Shown here: in pieces, positions 13,739 to 26,410 of the stretch | Position numbering within the stretch: position 1 is the first letter of the stretch | Layout: each line of letters opens with the position of its first letter | Assembly (NCBI GenBank): GCA_023061495.1 | Contig: GCA_023061495.1_3643.1 | Length of the DNA: 64,000 bases | Reading direction: 5' to 3' (one strand) | Source of the DNA: Escherichia coli | GTDB lineage: Bacteria > Pseudomonadota > Gammaproteobacteria > Enterobacterales > Enterobacteriaceae | The notes under the pieces: generated by a model | The model's database searches: none | What the model saw: the letters and a program-made list of their open reading frames with translations, nothing else | Told to the model about the DNA's origin: nothing | Made by a program: the position numbers and the translations under genes

Positions 13739-13839
13739 GATATTTATGGTAGTATTTATTTTAAAATTATAAAAATTTTAGGCGATGAGGGAAAATATGT
13801 AATGGATTTTCCCTTATTTATCAGATATTTGCAGATATT

Positions 13840-14250
13840 TGGAAATCCTTAGAAAATCAGAAAATGGATCGAAAACTAAAATGGATTTTTCAGAGTAGGC
13901 GCGACAAGCTGAATAACTCATCCTACCGTTTGCACCATATTCCAGGCCACCATTATAGATTTCCCACACATGCTCACATCCTTCTACTAGAACTTCCTCC
14001 ACTTACCCTTGACCTTTTATGGTAATAATCTAACCACTATCTTGAAGTTGCAGTGCAGCTTTCCAGGTACTCGATCTGTTTTTCGTTTCAAAGATTGAAT
14101 TTTCTGAAAATTTTTCTCGATAAATTTTTCGGTACTCGATCTGTTTTTCGTTTTCTGAATCAGATTTTCTGGGAATCGTTCCGGCGCTCGACCTGAAATT
14201 TTTGGGGACGAAATCGATTTTTCGTTTTCAGAAATGGATTTTTAAAATTT
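13840..14250. repeat. AT-rich non-coding region with iterons (23-bp perfect direct repeat at 14066-14088 and 14131-14153; several AAAATGGAT and TTTTTCGTTTTC units)
   Basis: Direct repeats visible in sequence; no convincing ORF. Confidence 0.55.
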
Positions 14251-14389
14251 CTATATGGGAATATTTTAGGAGTTATTATTTTATATAGAATTGTCACGGT
14301 AGGTAATTAGCATGCTAACTAAATTTATGAAATGCGAAAAGTTCTCATTTAGAATTTTGAGTGATAATCATTCTCGTTTGCAGAATAAC

Positions 14390-14566
14390 GGGCACCCCCG
14401 GTGATTGTCTCCCGGCCCCTACTGCCCCGGCTTGTTATTATAGTAACACACAGGACAAAGAAAGCAAGAAGTTTTTGCATAAATTTTTAGACGATAATGA
14501 TAATCGTTCTCATTTCATGCAGCGCCCATCCCCGGTGGTTGTCTCCCCCGTCACCGGTGCCTGCCG
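14390..14566 (+). repeat. Two copies of a GC-rich element (core CCGGTG(A/G)TTGTCTCCC) in an AT-rich intergenic region; third copy inverted at 22498-22540
   Basis: 14390-14431 and 14525-14566 share core and upstream GATAATC(A/G)TTCTC flank; potential stem CCGGTG/CACCGG. Confidence 0.45.
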
Positions 14567-14770
14567 TCCTTTCGATATGTATATTGTGCCACCTGGCGGG
14601 GCCGCTGTCAACACTTTTCAAAAAATTTTTCTAACCTGATGCGCTAACCGCTGCAACCTGGCGGGGCCAGCCTGGCAGGACCTAACTGACCAGGTAGGGG
14701 AGAATGAAGGCTTGCAAACCTGGTAGGCCTATGCTATAGGATAAGTAACAATTGAAGAGGAGGTACAAAA

Positions 14771-15701: not shown

Positions 15702-15729
15702 TTGACACGCTGCAAAATTCAAGTAAACT
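15702..15729 (+). promoter_or_regulatory. Sigma70-like promoter (TTGACA-16-TAAACT) followed by leader hairpin GGCGGGAA-TGTT-TCCCGCC (15740-15758)
   Basis: Hexamers and hairpin read directly from sequence. Confidence 0.5.
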
Positions 15730-15778
15730 AGGCACAAAAGGCGGGAATGTTTCCCGCCAACACAAAGGAAAAAAGATC

Positions 15779-16174
15779 ATGAATAAGAACGTACGCCGCA
15801 TCATGAACGAACTGGCAAACGATGAAAAAATTATTGATATGCATTTGGTCAACATTTGCCGCCGTTGTGTAACATACAACAACCGCGCCGCGAAAGCGCG
15901 TGAGATGAACGCAAAAGGCACCTTAAAGCCCTTTCAGGTGGTTGTAAAATCTATAACTAGCGCAGCAGGCCAGGCGCATGACCACAACAACGAGAGCGCT
16001 AATATTGATCCGTCTTACGTAATGAAACGGATCCGGACTTGCAAGAATAAAGAGCAGGTGTATAACGTCATAGATTGGCTGGACTCCCTGGGCGATGTGG
16101 TTTACAATAGGTTTTCTGCAGCTATTGAGATTCAGTTAGACAGGTTGGACGGGAAAGTACTGAAAACTTACTGA
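15779..16174 (+). CDS. Hypothetical protein
   Basis: ATG 15779 in frame with track ORF 15680-16174, preceded by AAAGGAAAAAAGATC leader. Confidence 0.55.
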   Translation: MNKNVRRIMNELANDEKIIDMHLVNICRRCVTYNNRAAKAREMNAKGTLKPFQVVVKSITSAAGQAHDHNNESANIDPSYVMKRIRTCKNKEQVYNVIDWLDSLGDVVYNRFSAAIEIQLDRLDGKVLKTY

Positions 16175-16175
16175 G

Positions 16176-16221
16176 TTTATTTTTAGATGGCCTTGACTCC
16201 AGGGCCATCAATAAAGTAAAC
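16176..16221 (+). repeat. Conserved 46-bp intergenic palindromic element, copy 1 (TTTATTTTTAGATGGCCTTGACTCCAGGGCCATCAATAAAGTAAAC)
   Basis: Near-identical copies at 16796-16842 and 20515-20560; 7-bp stem GATGGCC/GGCCATC with loop containing TTGACT. Confidence 0.6.
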
Positions 16222-16254
16222 TAACCACAGTTGAGCGGAAAGGGGGGCTTAAAG

Positions 16255-16374
16255 ATGAGCACTGCACGCCAATACACAAAGGTAACTATTATCGTTTGCG
16301 TTGTCGGTTACATCCTGGCGCAAATGTTAATGAGTAGCGCCAACAGTTTTGCAAAATTTTTCTTAAATTTTTAA
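16255..16374 (+). CDS. Possible small hydrophobic peptide (39 aa)
   Basis: RBS AAAGGGGGG before ATG 16255; hydrophobic core VTIIVCVVGYILAQML. Confidence 0.3.
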   Translation: MSTARQYTKVTIIVCVVGYILAQMLMSSANSFAKFFLNF

Positions 16375-16402
16375 TTGACAAGCTAATCCAAATCGGTATA
16401 CT
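16375..16402 (+). promoter_or_regulatory. Sigma70-like promoter (TTGACA-16-TATACT) followed by leader hairpin GGGAA-AACT-TTCCC
   Basis: Hexamers upstream of gene 16454. Confidence 0.5.
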
Positions 16403-16453
16403 TAAACACGTAAACGGGAAAACTTCCCAGAACACACAAAAGGAGAAAACACC

Positions 16454-16795
16454 ATGACTACTATGACCGCCGCAGAAAAAGCTATGCAGATCGCCGCGCT
16501 GAAAAAACAGATTGCAGACCTTGAGAACAAGATCGATAACTTTGAAATCGACGAGGACAAGTACGACGAAAACTATGATGAATGGTTAGACGAGATCTAC
16601 GGCGAAATTATGATCGGAAACATTTCTTTTCTTCCGTCGCGTATCCTCAAGGAGCTAGATCCTATCGCTTACCGCTGCGGATTTAGCGACTACATCGACA
16701 GCCTGGATATTGAGGACGATGAAGAGTACCAAGAATTGCAGACAGAGCTCGAAGAAGTGAAAGAAGAGCTTTCAGAGCTGGAAGAAAACGAGTAA
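16454..16795 (+). CDS. Hypothetical acidic coiled-coil protein
   Basis: RBS AAAAGGAGAAAACACC-ATG; highly acidic E/D-rich sequence. Confidence 0.6.
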   Translation: MTTMTAAEKAMQIAALKKQIADLENKIDNFEIDEDKYDENYDEWLDEIYGEIMIGNISFLPSRILKELDPIAYRCGFSDYIDSLDIEDDEEYQELQTELEEVKEELSELEENE

Positions 16796-16842
16796 ATTTA
16801 TTTTTAGATGGCCTTGACTCCAGGGCCATCAATAAAGTAAAC
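16796..16842 (+). repeat. Conserved intergenic palindromic element, copy 2
   Basis: Identical core to 16176-16221. Confidence 0.6.
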
Positions 16843-16881
16843 TTTACACTGTTAACACTGAACTAATGAGGAGTTAAAACC

Positions 16882-17127
16882 ATGGCAGCACTAATCACCA
16901 AATATTATGCGCCCACCAACACCAAAAGCGCCCGTATCATGGTAAAAGGCTTCGGACGTAAAAAGGTTTACGCCTGGGATTATGCCTTAGATATGGAAGA
17001 CAACTACACCAACGCAATGACCGATTTTATTAATGAACTAAATAAACAGATCTTGACAAATTATAAAGTTACCGATATTGCTTACATAGGTGAAGGCGGG
17101 ATCTGTTTTGTAGGCATTGTGAAATAG
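16882..17127 (+). CDS. Hypothetical small protein
   Basis: RBS GAGGAG before ATG; ORF track. Confidence 0.6.
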   Translation: MAALITKYYAPTNTKSARIMVKGFGRKKVYAWDYALDMEDNYTNAMTDFINELNKQILTNYKVTDIAYIGEGGICFVGIVK

Positions 17128-17175
17128 TTATTTTTTCGGTGGTCCTGGTTGCAGGGCCATCTATAAAGATAATTT
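17128..17175 (+). repeat. Degenerate copy of the intergenic palindromic element (hairpin GGTCCTG-GTTG-CAGGGCC)
   Basis: Shares TTATTTTT...GGGCCATC...ATAAAG flanks with the other copies. Confidence 0.45.
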
Positions 17176-17203
17176 ATTAACACCATGAAAGGAGAAAGTA
17201 CAC

Positions 17204-17743
17204 ATGATTAGCGGGGCTAGTTTTATTATTGGCGCTATTGCTACGGCTTTAATTGTAAATAAGATCCAGGATAAAAAGGAAAGAGGAAGTACCGCCCTTG
17301 CAGAATATCCATTTTGGGCATTCAACGATAACGAAGATTATATTATAAAGTATAAAAATAAAGAAGGCGACCAAGTAACACCGCGACCGATCCCGGCTTA
17401 CAAAATGCAGGAAACACTATACCGCCTGGAAGCGGGTGGCGCAAAAATTGTAGACTTTTGGGGATACGACCACACAGATCAGGAAGTTATAAAGCGCCGC
17501 ATCCGGGCTATTCAGGCCAATATTGAAGTTAGCAAGGGGGAAGATATGAAAATTAATTTCGAGAAAATTGTAAAGCGCCCTCATGATTCCGAAGAGCTGC
17601 CAGAACGCCGCCAGCGTAACAATAAACTGAATAAGCCAAAAAGGTTTGGGAAGATCTGGCGCAATCATTATGATCGTAAATTGCCCGGCCTACTTTTGGA
17701 ACGTGAACGACAGGCAGAACGATACCGCCATAAAGACAAATAA
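17204..17743 (+). CDS. Hypothetical protein with N-terminal transmembrane segment and basic C-terminus
   Basis: RBS AAAGGAGAAAG before ATG; hydrophobic ASFIIGAIATALIV. Confidence 0.6.
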   Translation: MISGASFIIGAIATALIVNKIQDKKERGSTALAEYPFWAFNDNEDYIIKYKNKEGDQVTPRPIPAYKMQETLYRLEAGGAKIVDFWGYDHTDQEVIKRRIRAIQANIEVSKGEDMKINFEKIVKRPHDSEELPERRQRNNKLNKPKRFGKIWRNHYDRKLPGLLLERERQAERYRHKDK

Positions 17744-17751
17744 CAACCAAC

Positions 17752-17778
17752 GCCCCGCCATTGTGCGGGGCTTTTTAT
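17752..17778 (+). terminator. Rho-independent terminator
   Basis: CCCCGC-CATTGT-GCGGGG followed by CTTTTTATTT. Confidence 0.55.
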
Positions 17779-17902
17779 TTCTATCCTACTAATAGCGCCC
17801 CTGGTTGGCCCTGTAAGCGCCAAAAAGGCCCCCACCTATGCAATCGCCCCCCTTAACCTGAAAACATCGCCCAGGGCCGTTTTATGGCGTTAAAAATATC
17901 AT

Positions 17903-17930
17903 TGACATCGTCAACAGGTTAGCTATACTA
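17903..17930 (+). promoter_or_regulatory. Sigma70-like promoter (TTGACA ... TATACT)
   Basis: Hexamers upstream of gene 17962. Confidence 0.5.
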
Positions 17931-17961
17931 ACCACATCAAAGAGAGAAAGGAGTAAACGCC

Positions 17962-18222
17962 ATGCGTAAATTAAAAAATTTTGATAAAGTTGATGTTATC
18001 CTGAATAATTTTTACTACTGCAACAACAAGGCTATTTGGTGGCGTGATAGTTCCACCGATAAAGTCAAGGCGCGCTTTCTTCAGGGGCACTGGCAAGGCC
18101 GCCCAGTGATTAAAATCATGGGGCAATTGGTAGCGTTTAAAAATTGCCGCCGTGTTGATGACGTTGAGGAGATTTTAAACATTTTGCGCCACAATAATTT
18201 AAAAAATAGTGTTGACAAGTAA
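17962..18222 (+). CDS. Hypothetical small protein
   Basis: RBS AAAGGAG before ATG; ORF track. Confidence 0.55.
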   Translation: MRKLKNFDKVDVILNNFYYCNNKAIWWRDSSTDKVKARFLQGHWQGRPVIKIMGQLVAFKNCRRVDDVEEILNILRHNNLKNSVDK

Positions 18223-18239
18223 ATCTCAATAAGTATAAT
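18212..18239 (+). promoter_or_regulatory. Sigma70-like promoter (TTGACA-16-TATAAT) followed by leader hairpin GGCGGGAA-AACT-TTCCCGCC (18250-18268)
   Basis: Consensus hexamers; hairpin sits about 10 nt after the -10 box. Confidence 0.6.
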
Positions 18240-18296
18240 TAAACACACAGGCGGGAAAACTTCCCGCCACTAACAAAGAAAACAGGAGAAAATATC

Positions 18297-18920
18297 ATGA
18301 CCACCGTTAACATTACCACAGGTTACAATTTATCTTTCGACGTGCTGACCGACGAACAAAAAGAAAAAGCCATTGAAATGGTACGCGAAAGAGAAGAACG
18401 CAGCGGGGATGATTTTTTCGCAGAAAATGTAATTGAATACTATAAAGAATATATCTTTCCAGAGTACGGCCTTGAAGATACCGAAGTACATTGGTCCGGC
18501 TTTTGGTGCCAGGGTGACGGCGCGTCAATCAGTGCCGAAAACGTGGATTTAGAAAAATTTTTGCGTAAAGTAAAGGCCCTGACCAAGTTCCGATCAATTC
18601 GTCACTTGTTCGGCACAATGCACGATGGCGAACTATCCGCCAGTGTTGAACGCGACAAGTACAGCCATTACAGCCATGAAAACACTGTAAGCGGGTACAT
18701 TGATACCACCTGGCTAGATCTGACCGCCAAACAAGAAAACAAAGTGGAAGACCTGGAAGAACTGATCACCGAGACGGTACGGGAGCTATCCCGCAAGGTT
18801 TACGTAGACCTGGAACAGGCCTATCTGGAACAGTTCACCGCAGAAAACCTGATCGGCCTTATCGAGGCCAACGACTGGCGGTTTGATGTCGATGAATATG
18901 GTGAGATGACTTTTTCATAA
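18297..18920 (+). CDS. Hypothetical protein (207 aa)
   Basis: RBS ACAGGAGAAAATATC-ATG; ORF track. Confidence 0.6.
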   Translation: MTTVNITTGYNLSFDVLTDEQKEKAIEMVREREERSGDDFFAENVIEYYKEYIFPEYGLEDTEVHWSGFWCQGDGASISAENVDLEKFLRKVKALTKFRSIRHLFGTMHDGELSASVERDKYSHYSHENTVSGYIDTTWLDLTAKQENKVEDLEELITETVRELSRKVYVDLEQAYLEQFTAENLIGLIEANDWRFDVDEYGEMTFS

Positions 18921-19011
18921 ATAAAGTGTTGCAATAATCTAAAAACCTGCTATATTAAAAACTCAAGGGGCAAGACGTTTGCCCCACACACAAAACAAAG
19001 AGGATAACATC

Positions 19012-19392
19012 ATGAAAAACACTACCAAGGCTATTGACACCGTTATGTTTAACCTGGTCACATTCCGTGAAGATATGAAAGATCTTCCGCGTGAAACAGT
19101 GTGCGACCATATCGAAAACTATCGCAAACTAATCAAAGAGTTGCCTTTAAAACGTGATCAATATGCGGCTAACGCCATGCTTAATGCCATGATCAAAAAG
19201 ATGATCCAGTGTGATTTAACCCTGGCCTATGATTATGCGGGTGGTCGTTTTGCAGTATACAATCAGCCCGTGCCCGGTATGAGCACCACCGAAGAATTGC
19301 ACGCGCTCAATCTAAAACAAGACGTGTGGGATAGTATGCCTCGCGTGGTGGTATGGGTAGAAAGCGGAAAGATTTACGGCGATAATTTTTAA
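19012..19392 (+). CDS. Hypothetical protein
   Basis: ATG 19012 after AAAGAGGATAACATC; promoter TTGCAA...TATATT and leader hairpin GGGGCAA-GACG-TTTGCCCC upstream. Confidence 0.6.
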   Translation: MKNTTKAIDTVMFNLVTFREDMKDLPRETVCDHIENYRKLIKELPLKRDQYAANAMLNAMIKKMIQCDLTLAYDYAGGRFAVYNQPVPGMSTTEELHALNLKQDVWDSMPRVVVWVESGKIYGDNF

Positions 19393-19402
19393 TCAGGTAA
19401 CA

Positions 19403-19428
19403 GGCGGCATATTTGCCGCCTTATTGTT
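19403..19428 (+). terminator. Rho-independent terminator
   Basis: GGCGGCA-TATT-TGCCGCC followed by TTATTGTT. Confidence 0.55.
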
Positions 19429-19456
19429 GATCAGAACTGTAAAAGAGGTACATAGA

Positions 19457-19828
19457 ATGGAATTTATTATTTTGGCTATATTGGTTGCCTTGTTTAACGC
19501 CTGGATCGCTGGCAAGATGGGGAGATCCGCCTTTTTATGGTTTATTATATCTATTTTCCTGGGGGTGGTTGCAACTATTGTATTGGTTATCCTTGCAATT
19601 GTTGACAAGGGGAATAATAGAAAGGGTAAAGTATTTTCAGACCTGTACGACGCTCAAACGTTTGTCAACGCCTATTATAGCGATCTTCCAGTCTCCCTAC
19701 GTTGCAGCCTTGCACAACAGGTTTTCGATGAAGCTAAAACCAGAGATCACGCCCATGAGATTTGTTTAACTGAGGCGGATCGCTTATTTGAGAGGAATAG
19801 AAAATATGTGGGCCAACCGTTTAAATAA
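19457..19828 (+). CDS. Hypothetical membrane protein (two predicted TM helices)
   Basis: ATG 19457 after AAAAGAGG; MEFIILAILVALFNAWIAG and FLWFIISIFLGVVATIVLVILAIV. Confidence 0.55.
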   Translation: MEFIILAILVALFNAWIAGKMGRSAFLWFIISIFLGVVATIVLVILAIVDKGNNRKGKVFSDLYDAQTFVNAYYSDLPVSLRCSLAQQVFDEAKTRDHAHEICLTEADRLFERNRKYVGQPFK

Positions 19829-19938
19829 TGCCACGTTAATTAATCCATTTAGTGAAGATTTGAAGCCAGCCGCCTGGCGTGACGGATTCAATAACGAAAG
19901 ATTTACTTTTAGGCCTGATCTTGAGAGGTTTTATAGCA

Positions 19939-20064
19939 ATGGATCGAACAACGGGAGAGATAATTTTTCTTGCGATGTGTGTCGTGATCGGACTACTGGG
20001 GGCCATTGCAAACCACGTAACTGCTAACAGGAGGGAAGGGGGAGACGATGACAACCAAGGATAA
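19939..20064 (+). CDS. Possible small membrane peptide (41 aa)
   Basis: ATG 19939 after GAGAGG; hydrophobic IIFLAMCVVIGLLGAIA; competes with an alternative-frame ORF. Confidence 0.3.
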   Translation: MDRTTGEIIFLAMCVVIGLLGAIANHVTANRREGGDDDNQG

Positions 20065-20170
20065 GCCCCGCACCGATAAGGCGCGCCGTGTTATGGTATG
20101 GCTTGAGATCATCGCCCTTGAAATATTGTTAGGCGTAGGGATGTATTTTATCGCTGTAAGCAACTGATAA
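20048..20170 (+). CDS. Possible small membrane peptide (39 aa)
   Basis: RBS CAGGAGGGAAGGGGGAG before ATG 20048; hydrophobic VMVWLEIIALEILLGVGMYFIAV; terminator follows. Confidence 0.4.
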
Positions 20171-20171
20171 C

Positions 20172-20202
20172 GGCCCCCGATCCCTGGGGGCCTAACTTTT
20201 TT
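20172..20202 (+). terminator. Rho-independent terminator
   Basis: GGCCCCC-GATCCCT-GGGGGCC followed by TAACTTTTTT. Confidence 0.6.
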
Positions 20203-20312
20203 CAAAAAATTTTTCTTCCTGAGTGTTGCAATCCGGTCCAGAATATGGATAATAACAATCAACGGGGAGACACTCCCCACCACACAGACAAAGTTCCAAA
20301 AGGAGAAACAAA

Positions 20313-20513
20313 ATGAGCAACAATATCCGCGTTATTAACTTCAAAAAAGAAGAAAAAATTGCTGTGCTGGTTGATGGTCAAGAAATATTCAAAGGCGACT
20401 ACGAGGACCACCAAGCGGCGATCAGTATTACCCGCGTGATTGGTTATCATAATTTCTACCCTCAAGGCGCTGAGGCAGCAGTAAAACGAATTAAAGAGAT
20501 TGTAGATCTGTAA
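20313..20513 (+). CDS. Hypothetical small protein
   Basis: RBS AAAAGGAGAAACAAA-ATG; promoter and leader hairpin GGGGAG-ACAC-TCCCC upstream. Confidence 0.55.
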   Translation: MSNNIRVINFKKEEKIAVLVDGQEIFKGDYEDHQAAISITRVIGYHNFYPQGAEAAVKRIKEIVDL

Positions 20514-20514
20514 A

Positions 20515-20560
20515 ATTTATTTTTAGATGGCCTTGACTCCAGGGCCATCAATAAAGTAAA
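20515..20560 (+). repeat. Conserved intergenic palindromic element, copy 3
   Basis: Identical core to 16176-16221. Confidence 0.6.
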
Positions 20561-20604
20561 TTTAAACCCTGTTAAAATAATCAGTGCAAAAAGGAGCAAT
20601 GATC

Positions 20605-20904
20605 ATGTTTATACCCGCCAATAATCTCTATTTCTTTGATGGTCAGATCGTAGACGGCGTGGAAGTTGAGATCACTGGATGTCAAGGCGGTCAGGTAATG
20701 ATCTTCCGCAATAGTGCCTTTAACGATCAATTTATTACAATGACTGTGGAAGTTAAAAAACTGGACGATAAGAAAACACTCATTGACTATTCCGTGAAAG
20801 ATTATCCAGACTACCACATGATCTATGGTGATTTGTGCATTGTTGACCGTGACAAGGTAGGCGGCATTGTGATCGCTATTGTGAACGATGTTTTCTCTAA
20901 ATAA
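20605..20904 (+). CDS. Hypothetical protein
   Basis: ATG 20605 with AGGAG 7 nt upstream; track ORF 20584-20904. Confidence 0.55.
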   Translation: MFIPANNLYFFDGQIVDGVEVEITGCQGGQVMIFRNSAFNDQFITMTVEVKKLDDKKTLIDYSVKDYPDYHMIYGDLCIVDRDKVGGIVIAIVNDVFSK

Positions 20905-21510: not shown

Positions 21511-21726
21511 ATGATCACGAACAAAACAGGCAAAACGGAATTTTTACGCGGCTTGCAAATAGGTAAGCCCGAGATCTGGCATTGCACTAAAACACCACGC
21601 GACGAAATGAAAGACTTTACCGCCACGCTGAAGCGGGTAAAGATATCCATTACGCAGAAAAAAGCCTTGATAGTGGTGGAAGGTGAGATCCCTCAAGCCG
21701 TTGTTATAGTTGAGCGTACAGCATAG
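21511..21726 (+). CDS. Hypothetical small protein
   Basis: ATG 21511 after AAGGTG; ORF track 21502-21726. Confidence 0.45.
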   Translation: MITNKTGKTEFLRGLQIGKPEIWHCTKTPRDEMKDFTATLKRVKISITQKKALIVVEGEIPQAVVIVERTA

Positions 21727-21815
21727 TTTAATCTATACCGTACGCCCCATTAACTAACAAAGCATAAACAGGCGGCGGTAACCGCCTTAAACGCAGCAGA
21801 AAGAGGATAGACAAC

Positions 21816-22100
21816 ATGAAAAAGATGATCGCAGTGGTTGCCCTGGTTATTGGACTTAATGCGCCTGTAATGGCCAAAGAGTTGGCAAAAGAGGTAGATC
21901 TAACTGATATCCATGCCGTCAATCAAATCGGTGTTACTTATCGGTTATGCCTTGCCGCAAAAACTTTCCAGGACGGCACAACAGAGTACTACGGATTCGA
22001 GGGCGTCCGGTGCGGTGAGCTTGCTCGCGACCTTAAAGAAGATCCAGACCTGGAGGATCTGCCGATAACCGTAAACGGGAAAACTTACGTGAACCGTTAA
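21816..22100 (+). CDS. Hypothetical secreted protein (signal peptide)
   Basis: RBS AGAAAGAGGATAGACAAC-ATG; N-terminus MKKMIAVVALVIGLNAPVMA; hairpin GGCGG-CGGTAA-CCGCC in leader. Confidence 0.55.
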   Translation: MKKMIAVVALVIGLNAPVMAKELAKEVDLTDIHAVNQIGVTYRLCLAAKTFQDGTTEYYGFEGVRCGELARDLKEDPDLEDLPITVNGKTYVNR

Positions 22101-23812: not shown

Positions 23813-26410
23813 TTTTTTAACTGAATTATCAAGGGGCTTAGGCCTGTCTGCTCTTCCCCCTACCATAAACGGCCCTACCTGGCAAGTGGAATAATTGACG
23901 GGCCATCAATCCAGCACACTGTACAAATATACATATAAAAATAACTATTGCATAATCTTTCATCTTGTGGTAGCAGGGCCATTTTTACACGTTTTTCCTT
24001 CCAAAAATGCACGTAATGCAACTATTGCACAAAATTTAACCTGATACACATCTTCAGTATACTGTCAACAATTAAAAACACTTATAAGTCATACACTTAC
24101 ACCACCACAAAAGCGTGTCCTACGTGAAAAATCGGGTGTAACTATAGCCGCCAGATCTCAGAATTCACGTACGCACATCATTCTATAGCCTGCAAAGTAT
24201 TTATTCCAACCACAGAATAACGGAATAGTCAATACCTGTACAAAATAATTATTCGTACAAACTGCATAACATAAACCTGCCCAGGTGTCAACATTTTTCG
24301 TAAACAGTCCTAAATTGTCACGATAGGTTACTATAATCAGAGAAATCTTTAGTCGTCTAATGTTTACTGCACATAACTATACTGATTGGAATCATTAGAT
24401 GACTAAGAGAAAGATAAGAAATAGTTAACAATGTAATTGTTTTACCTGTAACAATAAGGCAACTATGCAAACGAATGCCATGGCGCGACGGAGTCGCGAC
24501 ATAATATAAAAGCAGTAACAATCACCCCCGTGATAGTTTGTCTGCAATCTATTAGTCAGATCATAGTTGCCTTGTATTCAGTTAATCATGACATAATAAG
24601 CAAGGCAACTATAGATCTGCTAATAGTTGCCCTGCTTTTATATTATGTCATAGAAACGCCCGAAGGGGTGACCTAGCCACCTGGCATAGCCAGCGAAAGA
24701 TTATTAGCTTGCTAGTTGTAAGCTTGTTGGCTGTTAGCTTGTCAATTGTTAACTTGCTAATTGTTAAACTCGGGAGCATAGCCCTCGTCTCAAGGGTGTT
24801 TTCATGCAAACGAATGTCATGGCTTATCATCTCTGTGTAAACAGTTTGGGCGTAAACAGTCTATGCGTAAATAGTGAGATATGGAATAGTAACAGCCGTT
24901 ATTGTGTCATATTGTGTGACATTGTGTCAAAGGTAAAAGTGTCAAAAGTGACAAAAGTGTATAAGGTGTCAGACAAGTTTTTCTCCTCTTTGTCAAGTGC
25001 TGCATGGAAAATTTACAAACTGGTATGGTAGCATTTTTGCGGCCCTGTTTACATTCAGGAGTGTATGTATAATCCTTGTGGTGTGGGCGTTTAGACGTCT
25101 AGACGGTCAGAAGTCCGCAGGTTAATAACTAATCTATTGGTTGTTAACTATATCCCCCACAAATAATAAGAAATGCAATTGTTATATGCGTAAACAGTAA
25201 CTCATGTTATCAATCCATGTATGTATCGCCAGTGGTGCGCATAATGGGTATTATGTTAAATTGCCCGTAATGATAACGATTCTCACAATGATAAGTATTC
25301 TCATTCGCCCACACAAAATAGCTTGCAAATGTTGTGCCACTGTGTGAACGGCCTCGCCTATTAATTTGCCTCACTGCCCCGATATTTGAGAATTGTTATA
25401 AGAATGAGAAGTATTCCCATTTCGTCCGCCTGGCAGCGCTCCTGTAGGTCAGGTCAAAATCGTGGCAGAACTGGACCCCCCTTCAGATATTTCTGGCTGA
25501 CTCTTCAGGTCTGTGTGGGAAAAGCCAACCTCTCCGGCGGGGCAGGGGGTCTGCAGGAAAAAAATTGCAGGTCAATTAAAAAATTTACGTGGTGTATGAA
25601 GCGCTCTTCAGGTAAGGCAGGTATTATGGGATGAAACCCTCTTCAGGCAATGATATTTGTGGGTGTGATATTTGCTGGAAAGCCAGATATGACGGGACTC
25701 CCGGCGGGGCAGGGGTAGTACAGGCAGGGAAAATGTGGAGAATGTGGTGGGTAAATTGATCAGGCAGGTAGAGTATGGAATATGTTACAGGTATGTTAAA
25801 TATGGAGGTAAGATATTTGTAAGATTTGTGTGTAAAATCAAAGACTTAAGTGGTGTTGTGGTATTTTCTATAAATAATTCAAGTTTAATAGGTAATATTT
25901 GTCTCTATCCACTTTGTGTGGTAACCAGATTCAGATGAAATTGGTTTACAAGTGTATACATAATATACAAATTAAAGATACAAGAAACCCCCCTCCCCCT
26001 TCGGCTACCATTCACCTTTTCCTCTGACTGGTACTTAAACACTTATTCAGACTCTTCAGGTTATCACCCATATACCATATGGCAGTGACTGGTGTCCTCC
26101 GGCCCCTCTTTCGTCACCCGTCCGCTTCGCCATGCTAATGCCATAGCTAACTGTTCGGTTGTTCACCCTGTTCACTCAGGTGTATCTCCATACCCCTTCA
26201 AACCGAAGAGAACAGAAAACCCGAATTACTCGGTAAAAGAAAAGAGAAGAACTTAATTTTATCAGGATAGGCAAGAATGTCAAGGAATGACTGCTCACTA
26301 AACAAGCAAACAGTCATGTGTGGGAGGTAAGTGATTGTGGTGGTAGGAAATTTAGTTGAAAGATGTGTTATAGGTGCTTCCAGCACTTTAGCCGGGCAGC
26401 TAATTGTGTG
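23813..26410. other. 2.6-kb repeat-dense non-coding region at the convergence of + and - strand transcription units
   Basis: No convincing ORF with RBS; multiple families of 10-16 bp tandem or dispersed repeats and palindromes. Confidence 0.6.
24465..24823. repeat. Nested palindrome/iteron unit flanked by 20-bp direct repeats (ATGCAAACGAATG(C/T)CATGGC at 24465-24484 and 24804-24823)
   Basis: 18-bp perfect inverted repeat GACATAATATAAAAGCAG (24498-24515 / 24632-24649); 12-bp inverted repeat ATAGTTGCCTTG/CAAGGCAACTAT (24562-24573 / 24601-24612); three 15-bp AGCTTGT..ATTGTT-type units 24721-24766. Confidence 0.55.

Follow-up and report, generated by a model that had tools for sequence, protein, structure and literature searches.

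Intercistronic hairpins in the early region of rV5-like coliphages are candidate RNase III processing sites of the phage T7 type

Layout of the early region

The 64-kb stretch of contig GCA_023061495.1_3643.1 analysed here (the window), which is filed under an Escherichia coli assembly, is DNA of an rV5-like coliphage of the genus Vequintavirus. Megablast of positions 15000-21500 matches 162 phage records at 90-97% identity; nearly all of these are Escherichia phages of this genus (rV5, FV3, Murica, ECP2303 and others). The early region of the phage carries four copies of an intercistronic element of about 50 bases. The RNA of this element folds into a long, irregular hairpin that is probably a processing site for host RNase III.

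The early region that holds the hairpins is a row of small genes on the + strand with no assigned function, interspersed with near-consensus sigma-70 promoters and canonical terminators according to consensus and terminator scans. In the rV5 genome paper, the early block is proposed to be a single leftward transcription unit read by the host polymerase, and 33 promoters and 20 terminators are tabulated; the hairpin element is missing from both the text and the supplementary table of that paper. A domain search with the proteins flanking the hairpins is uninformative, except for a T7 gp1.1-like domain downstream of copy 4.

A repeat search identifies a 57-nt repeat family with members at 16176, 16797, 17128 and 20516. 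Three of these (copies 1, 2 and 3, at 16176, 16797 and 20516) share the exact 24-mer GATGGCCTTGACTCCAGGGCCATC at 16186, 16807 and 20526 on the + strand, where none is expected (100 shuffles); the member at 17128 (copy 4) is 63% identical. All four copies are on the + strand and start 0-2 nt from stop codons at 16174, 16795, 17127 and 20513. This bears out the original prediction, made from the sequence alone, of three near-identical copies following the stop codons at 16174, 16795 and 20513. The distance to the next ribosome-binding site had been put at 30-40 nt; measured from the end of the element it is about 20-30 nt. Copy 1 is abutted by the stop codon UGA (16172-16174). Copy 2 lies between a 113-aa gene (16454-16795) and an 81-aa gene (16882-17127), and copy 3 between a 66-aa gene (20313-20513) and a 99-aa gene (20605-20904).

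All copies are intercistronic and are located 3' of a sigma-70 promoter found by consensus scans (at 15702, 16375 or 20226), with no intervening terminator-like site. The promoter at 15702..15729 is followed by a 5' stem-loop at 15740-15758 and stands upstream of the operon with copy 1; the terminator scan finds no terminator-like site between this promoter and copy 1. The promoter at 16375..16402, the orthologue of which is annotated as P192 in the rV5 RefSeq record, heads the operon with copies 2 and 4; this operon ends at the canonical terminator 17752-17771. The promoter at 20226..20253 lies just past the terminator 20172-20192 and upstream of the gene that precedes copy 3. The hairpin operons terminate at canonical terminators (17752, 20172 and others). 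Judging from this arrangement, the copies are likely to be located inside polycistronic early transcripts.

Distribution of the element

A covariance model built from the family finds just the four copies in the window with filters off; in the remainder of the sister genome ECP2303 (76 kb) it finds none. Blastn locates the element in 121 phage records, all Vequintavirus and typically with three places each, so that its presence in related genomes, proposed earlier as a check, is established. It has no match in 5,426 complete E. coli genomes. A metagenome scan for the element returns Vequintavirus contigs only, and an exact-pattern scan of IMG/VR returns three Vequintavirus loci and chance matches. 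Tblastn with the flanking 81-aa protein leads to unrelated siphoviruses, all of which lack the element; a related-locus search with the 207-aa neighbour leads to unrelated contigs. Together, the 24-mer, the repeat search, the family model and the blastn and metagenome results confirm a genus-restricted family with four copies inside 4.4 kb.

A scan of 12-26 kb against Rfam 15 reaches no family threshold. The sole match is a chance-level snoRNA that overlaps copy 3 (26.7 bits versus a gathering score of 50, E 0.71).

Some 20 records in GenBank carry the name 'Campylobacter phage' (e.g. MG065677 and MG065666; several are marked UNVERIFIED) but are 92-95% identical to this Vequintavirus. Since the taxonomy lines of these records themselves say Vequintavirus, the 'Campylobacter' host label looks unreliable.

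Hairpin structure

The sense RNA of every copy consists of a 10-bp A/U-rich lower stem, an internal loop, a 10-bp upper stem and a tetraloop, which gives a hairpin of about 22 bp in total (Table 1). The lower stem starts in or beside the stop codon. The upper stem is GAUGGCCUUG/CAGGGCCAUC and includes one U.G pair; the internal loop is asymmetric in every copy, with 2 nt in its 5' strand and 3 nt in its 3' strand. The 7-bp stem described in the original prediction is therefore the mere core of a longer helix. The same prediction placed the hexamer TTGACT in the loop; half of it does lie in the tetraloop, and the other half is in the stem.

Fold energies of the four copies range from -22.4 to -25.1 kcal/mol (z -5.5 to -6.7) and are among the most stable of all 60-nt folds in the window. 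Copy 4 had been regarded as degenerate, which holds for its sequence but not for its structure: the fold is intact at -22.4 kcal/mol, and the orthologues of this copy in other genomes reach -30 to -32 kcal/mol.

A set of 52 sense copies was collected from 14 related loci; 49 of these are gap-free (31 distinct) and were used for covariation. Among the 31 distinct copies, the mean fold energy is -23.1 kcal/mol for the sense strand versus -14.3 kcal/mol for the antisense strand, and the sense fold is better in every case (31/31). Each copy has about 2.5 G.U pairs; the antisense folds are far worse because these pairs turn into A.C on the other strand. The family model likewise scores sense copies at 72-82 bits and antisense copies at 30-41 bits.

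Table 1. Hairpins, hairpin parts, predicted cuts and putative promoters in the window (model scores are explained in the text)
Feature	Position	Strand	Fold (kcal/mol; z)	Family model (bits)	T7-site model (bits; E)	Remarks
Copy 1 hairpin	16174..16222	+	-25.1; -6.7	80.9	26.5; 1.2e-3	
Copy 1 lower stem	16174-16183/16213-16222	+				from fold
Copy 1 upper stem	16186-16195/16200-16209	+				from fold
Copy 1 internal loop	16184-16185 (UA), 16210-16212 (AAU)	+				from fold
Copy 1 tetraloop	16196-16199 (ACUC)	+				from fold
Copy 2 hairpin	16795..16843	+	-24.3; -6.2	79.7	24.0; 5e-3	layout as copy 1
Copy 3 hairpin	20514..20562	+	-23.6; -5.5	82.4	28.9; 2.9e-4	top match of the T7-site model in the window
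Copy 4 hairpin	17126..17174	+	-22.4; -5.9		25.9	diverged paralogue, fold kept
Copy 4 parts		+				from fold: upper stem GGUGGUCCUG/CAGGGCCAUC; loop GUUG; internal loop UC/UAU
Predicted RNase III cut, copy 1	16212|16213	+				CAUCAAU^AAAG; rules and alignments
Predicted RNase III cut, copy 2	16833|16834	+				CAUCAAU^AAAG; rules and alignments
Predicted RNase III cut, copy 4	17164|17165	+				CAUCAAU^AAAG; rules and alignments
Predicted RNase III cut, copy 3	20552|20553	+				CAUCAAU^AAAG; rules and alignments
Stretch between copies 1 and 2	16223..16794	+				39-aa membrane open reading frame, promoter, 113-aa gene
Early promoter, sigma-70-type	15702..15729	+				TTGACA-16-TAAACT; consensus scan 10/12; putative
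Strong early promoter, sigma-70-type	16375..16402	+				TTGACA-16-TATACT; consensus scan 11/12; predicted
Sigma-70-type promoter	20226..20253	+				TTGCAA-16-GATAAT; consensus scan 9/12; putative

A GC-rich 10-bp upper stem directly after a stop codon could suggest an unusual terminator or attenuator that acts without a U-tract, and two copies are labelled 'terminator' in the Murica record (L001 2629-2673 and 6016-6060). However, the upper stem is followed by AAUAAAG and there is no U-run past the full hairpin. The terminator scan omits the copies, yet it lists canonical terminators in the same operons (17752, 19402, 20172); the earlier remark that the element has no downstream U-tract and is not a canonical terminator thus stands. 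In addition, efficient termination would silence the downstream genes, because these have no promoter of their own. An intrinsic terminator is rejected on the basis of the missing U-tract, and a terminator of an unusual kind is extremely improbable.

Conservation of the fold

Copy 4 differs from copies 1-3 at 13 of 53 positions while all 20 of 20 pairs are retained. The 5' arm of its upper stem has three changes, each from a Watson-Crick pair to a wobble pair or the reverse, and the lower stem has two compensatory swaps involving both sides (A-U to U-A and U-A to A-U). The internal-loop letters (U..,.AU) are unchanged between the diverged paralogues. Variation among the main copies is mostly within the tetraloop.

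In the 49 gap-free copies, 98.1% of cells are paired, versus 34-56% in controls with slid partners. Changes on both sides are seen at four pairs (GC/AU/GU, UA/CG, UA/GU/AU/GC and AU/UA), and include a path from U-A through G.U to G-C. None of 500 shuffles reaches the observed covariation score. In a distant genome, which is 83% identical here, copy 1 has 1-nt insertions in the terminal loop and in the 3' internal loop and two pair-preserving substitutions; the fold is still at -22.6 kcal/mol (z -6.0). These patterns strongly suggest that selection acts on the RNA hairpin of the sense strand, with its A/U lower stem and its loop.

Conservation also bears on a DNA-level explanation. The element could be a sigma-70 promoter for the downstream gene (TTGACT, 18 bp, TAAACT/TAAATT), with the palindrome as a possible operator or with the promoter coexisting with the hairpin. 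All three main copies score 9/12 in the consensus scan and have an A/T-rich tract upstream; TTGAC is largely kept in the main copies and TTGACA variants exist. The downstream genes have short spacers without another promoter, and two copies in the Gotham record are annotated 'promoter predicted by PhagePromoter' (L024 6646-6675 and 10389-10418), while the rV5 RefSeq record, EdH4 and others leave the element unannotated. However, sites at 9/12 with an 18-bp spacer are common: a 14 kb scan yields 52 of them where chance alone would give about 33. The true early promoters in the neighbourhood have spacers of 16-17 bp and reach 10-12/12. Copy 4 has CTGGTT in place of TTGACT and keeps the fold, and the insertions in both loops of the distant genome result in a 20-bp spacer with an intact hairpin. 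Hexamers spaced at 16-18 bp and conserved among the copies, as would be expected of a sigma-70 promoter, are consequently not seen. The '-10' hexamer contains bases that change in concert with partners some 45 nt upstream (pairs 4-50 and 5-49), which promoter function does not predict. With regard to an operator, the differences between the palindrome arms are of the G.U type and strand-specific, and are not explained by a DNA-binding dimer. A promoter or operator as the basis of the element is decidedly unlikely; weak promoter activity on top of an RNA function is possible.

Resemblance to the RNase III sites of phage T7

The early RNase III sites of phage T7 were folded with the same tool as the phage copies. 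In R0.3, R0.5, R1, R1.1 and R1.3, a lower stem of 5-10 bp is separated by an asymmetric internal loop from an upper stem of 9-10 bp, which is capped by a loop of 4-5 nt. Like the element, they form a family of similar hairpins (about 55 nt) that lie between cistrons of a polycistronic early transcript synthesised by the host RNA polymerase. In both families, the upper stem has 9-10 bp and ends in a tetra- or pentaloop, and an asymmetric internal loop joins it to a lower stem of about 10 bp. The T7 R1 site is particularly close: between a 10-bp lower stem and a 9-bp upper stem topped by a tetraloop, it has an internal loop (5' UA, 3' AAU) identical to that of the element as seen in copy 1, and its cut lies after AAU. 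T7 R1.1 has the U-A/U.G pairs of its distal box and an A-U pair of its proximal box in the same register as the element.

The resemblance is also found by covariance models in both directions. When the family model is run on 8.2 kb of T7 early DNA, its top match is the T7 R1 site (18.2 bits, E 0.03) and its third match is R0.5. Conversely, a model trained solely on the five T7 early sites (the T7-site model) was run unfiltered on both strands of the whole window. Ranks 1-4 are the four copies, on the + strand and aligned end-to-end, at 28.9, 26.5, 25.9 and 24.0 bits (rough E-values of 3e-4 to 5e-3); rank 5 is at 15.1 bits (E 0.9). In negative controls the best score of this model is 13.9 bits for the 76 kb of sister genome; for phi92, of which the first 50 kb were scanned, it is 13.5 bits. 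Among T7 late sites on which it was not trained, it scores R18.5 at 47.4, R4.7 at 47.2, R6.5 at 25.1 and R3.8 at 14.1 bits, and misses R13. By comparison with these untrained sites and with the background controls, the Vequintavirus copies score like genuine, independent T7 sites and far above background. The model matches in T7 fall on the cut coordinates attributed to Dunn & Studier (1983); the annotation tables of T7 and phiA1122 do not list RNase III sites.

There are also differences. The phage that carries the element is an unrelated myovirus, and blastn finds no similarity to T7. The lower stem of the element is near-pure A/U and begins at the stop codon, whereas the T7 hairpins begin 30-45 nt past the stop.

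Comparison with RNase III recognition rules

Sequence requirements of RNase III have been described for a minimal T7 R1.1 substrate by Pertzev and Nicholson (PMC1540722). An 11-bp helix is required between the cut and the tetraloop. The distal box is U-A followed by U.G, and the need for U.G is stringent. The preferred proximal box is G-C, then A-U or U-A (no G-C), then A-U, then a weak pair beside the cut; natural R1.1 has a U.C mismatch at proximal position 4 (PMC1540722).

The phage hairpins agree with these rules in part. The 10-bp upper stem and one non-canonical position give 11 positions from cut to loop, above a 10-bp lower stem, and all four copies have an asymmetric internal loop. 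In copies 1-3, a closing G-C pair is followed by U25-A32 and U24.G33 as the second and third pairs from the tetraloop, as in the distal box; in the proximal box, A-U at position 2 and A.A at position 4 agree with the rules, and positions 1 and 3 deviate. Counted from the position-4 nucleotide, the cut is predicted two nt further along the 3' side, and in the alignments of both models the T7 cut falls in that column.

The elements are thus most likely mRNA processing or stability signals rather than promoters or terminators, because the sense RNA fold closely matches the T7 RNase III sites. More specifically, the four copies are probably T7-type RNase III processing hairpins in the early polycistronic mRNAs of rV5-like phages. 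The original prediction had left three options: a regulated promoter or operator, an RNase III or E processing site, and a binding site for a phage regulator. Compensatory and wobble changes, T7-like dimensions and register, and the reciprocal model matches favour the RNase III site among these; the promoter or operator is weak.

Proposed role in early mRNA processing

In the proposed mechanism, the copies would be transcribed by host RNA polymerase within a polycistronic early mRNA, where the irregular hairpin of about 22 bp forms. Host RNase III would then cleave the 3' side of the internal loop (...GGCCAUCAAU^AAAGUAAAC) and so part the upstream from the downstream cistron. The upstream message would be left with a stable 3' hairpin that shields it from 3' exonucleases, while the downstream message would gain a new 5' end 40-50 nt ahead of its start codon. 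RNase III cleavage sites of E. coli are over-represented in the intergenic parts of transcripts (PMC6212723). Where the enzyme makes a single cut at an internal loop, the 3' hairpin that remains acts as a determinant of stability (PMC3867540).

Several points weigh against this proposal. The internal loop is small and may also be represented by an A.A mismatch, a U-A pair and a single bulged U; it has 2/3 nt in the element compared with 4/5 nt in R0.3, R0.5 and R1.1. RNase III might therefore cut both strands, or it might merely bind. In copies 1-3, proximal positions 1 (U-A, canonical G-C) and 3 (G-C, canonical A-U) are off the optimum, in which the element differs from T7, and its cleavage is a prediction from sequence. 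With G.U at position 2 of the proximal box and C-G as the second distal pair, copy 4 may be a poorer substrate; box changes of this type reduce the reactivity of the minimal T7 substrate (PMC1540722). The U.G and U-A pairs of the distal box are the first bases of TTGACT, and alone cannot separate the RNA from the promoter reading. The covariation is supportive rather than overwhelming, since it consists of few events in one genus. The E-values of the covariance models are rough owing to a shortened calibration; the ranking and the controls are independent of them. Finally, a literature search found no transcript-end mapping for any Vequintavirus.

If both strands were cut, the hairpin would be removed and the upstream message destabilised rather than protected. 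The sib site of phage lambda is a known case of this kind: it is an RNase III hairpin cut on both strands, and by retroregulation the upstream message loses its protective hairpin and is destabilised. Both sib and the element are hairpins 3' of a coding region that would set the stability of the upstream message; in contrast to sib, the opposite outcome is predicted for the phage copies if only the 3' side is cut.

The most serious alternative is that the element is a stability barrier, similar to REP, that is not cut by RNase III but, once decay has set in downstream, stalls 3'-to-5' exonucleases and guards the upstream cistron. REP/BIME elements of E. coli are chromosomal, intercistronic imperfect palindromes present in many copies, and can shield upstream mRNA from 3' exonucleases. 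A stable, conserved sense hairpin right after stop codons within operons is what such a barrier would look like, and the two deviations from the RNase III optimum in the proximal box point the same way. However, a barrier requires neither an internal loop nor a length of two helical turns, and the asymmetric loop and its letters are kept in diverged paralogues; nor does a barrier account for the end-to-end alignment to T7 cleavage sites at 24-29 bits. An uncut barrier is on balance unlikely. The element resembles REP/BIME in being an intercistronic imperfect palindrome, and differs in its length, its internal loop and its match to T7 sites. A relative of host REP/BIME is ruled out by blastn, since the element is absent from all 5,426 E. 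coli genomes.

Natural variants and recombination

Hybrid copies with the 5' flank of copy 1 and the 3' flank of copy 2 are found in phages magaca (L022:6008-6060) and ECP32 (L026:6008-6060) and in an IMG/VR contig (L011:214-266). In all three, the module of about 620 bp between copies 1 and 2 is gone; these junctions show that it was lost through recombination between the two copies. In phage Gotham (L024:6008-6055), a 5-nt deletion (GGGCC) destroys the copy 1 hairpin and leaves a fold of -8.9 kcal/mol. Single copies are concluded from this deletion to be dispensable, though it could instead be an assembly error.

The hybrid copies and the loss of the 620-bp module raise the question of whether the element is a DNA recombination linker kept for shuffling or deletion of early modules, or a binding site for a recombination or regulatory protein. 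The copies lie in a variable region with many genes of unknown function, and PeSLs (promoter-early stem-loops), which are cassettes of T4-type phages, are similar in behaviour (PMC2839356). However, any 50-bp repeat is expected to recombine in a recombination-proficient phage without selection. The compensatory changes, the strand asymmetry and the match to T7 sites are also left unexplained, and the order of parts in PeSLs (stem-loop, AT-rich tract, near-perfect promoter) differs. A linker or protein-binding site of this kind is very improbable.

PeSLs of the T4-type phages RB49 and phi1 consist of a terminator stem-loop with a G-run and a C-run, an AT-rich tract and a near-perfect sigma-70 promoter (PMC2839356, PMC4122927). 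Like the element, they are intergenic stem-loop cassettes some 50 bp long that recur within a variable early region, and in both cases recombination between copies removes or swaps small genes. The promoter-like hexamers of the element are weak and inside the hairpin, and the terminator tail is absent. Membership in the PeSL group is rejected because published PeSLs have their parts in another order and a better promoter.

The element could also combine three functions as a boundary cassette of early genes: an RNase III site that parts the cistrons, a weak sigma-70 promoter that re-primes the downstream gene, and a linker for the deletion, duplication or exchange of small modules. Such a combination is quite unlikely; it would amount to a PeSL-like shuffling cassette with a processing site at its base in place of a terminator, and might have come from a T7-like phage along with the neighbouring T7 gp1.1-like gene.

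Other features of the window

A second repeated cassette is present in the early region, at 16375-16440, 18212-18277 and 22070-22094 and also at 15702-15758, 18929-18985 and 20226-20282 (repeat families D5/D7). It consists of a near-consensus sigma-70 promoter, about 8 nt, a short stem-loop with a G-run and a C-run (e.g. CGGGAAAACUUCCCG), CACACAAA and a ribosome-binding site. This cassette probably forms a 5'-terminal stem-loop on early mRNAs. Its promoter and stem-loop resemble the parts of PeSLs in a different order.

The region 17204-17743 holds one open reading frame of 179 aa, which corresponds to two overlapping reading frames (354 and 198 nt) in Murica, EdH4, rV5 and others. Either a genuine frameshift fusion or a difference in sequence could account for this apparent fusion. 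The C-terminal part is a T7 gp1.1-like domain (PF08200, E 1.6e-9). This gp1.1-like gene is located about 350 nt downstream of the copy 4 hairpin; in T7, it is the RNase III site R1.1 that precedes gene 1.1.

About 1 kb at 13740-14770 has no convincing open reading frames. It contains three 51-nt direct repeats at 14066-14255, spaced 65 and 74 nt apart and rich in GATTTTTC/GAAAATC motifs, and two similar blocks of about 120 nt at ~14360-14440 and ~14495-14600, in which GATAATC...CTC is followed by a C/G-rich segment. Possible identities of this region are the box marked 'non-coding' on the rV5 map, an origin, or small RNA genes.

Two further stable structures are unrelated to the hairpin family. 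A long, near-perfect palindrome (AAGCAAGGCAACTATAG...CTAATAGTTGCCCTGCTT) at 24591-24650 folds at -23 to -26 kcal/mol on either strand, and a hairpin with a 15-bp stem at 21701-21760 on the - strand folds at -26.5 kcal/mol.

Significance for rV5-like phages

T7-type processing sites are known already; their probable occurrence in rV5-like phages is new. The literature search found no report of such RNase III sites in these phages, and to our knowledge no RNA-level control is known in them. The rV5-like myoviruses are a large group of therapeutic and typing phages whose regulation has scarcely been studied. The copies are breakpoints of natural gene-module deletions, which is relevant when these phages are compared or engineered. 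The small covariance model of T7 sites is able to find such candidate sites in unrelated phages, and four precise cut-site predictions result. If cleavage takes place as predicted, the conflicting automatic labels of the element (terminator, promoter or none) would be corrected, and T7-style RNase III processing of host-transcribed early operons would be extended to the rV5-like myoviruses.

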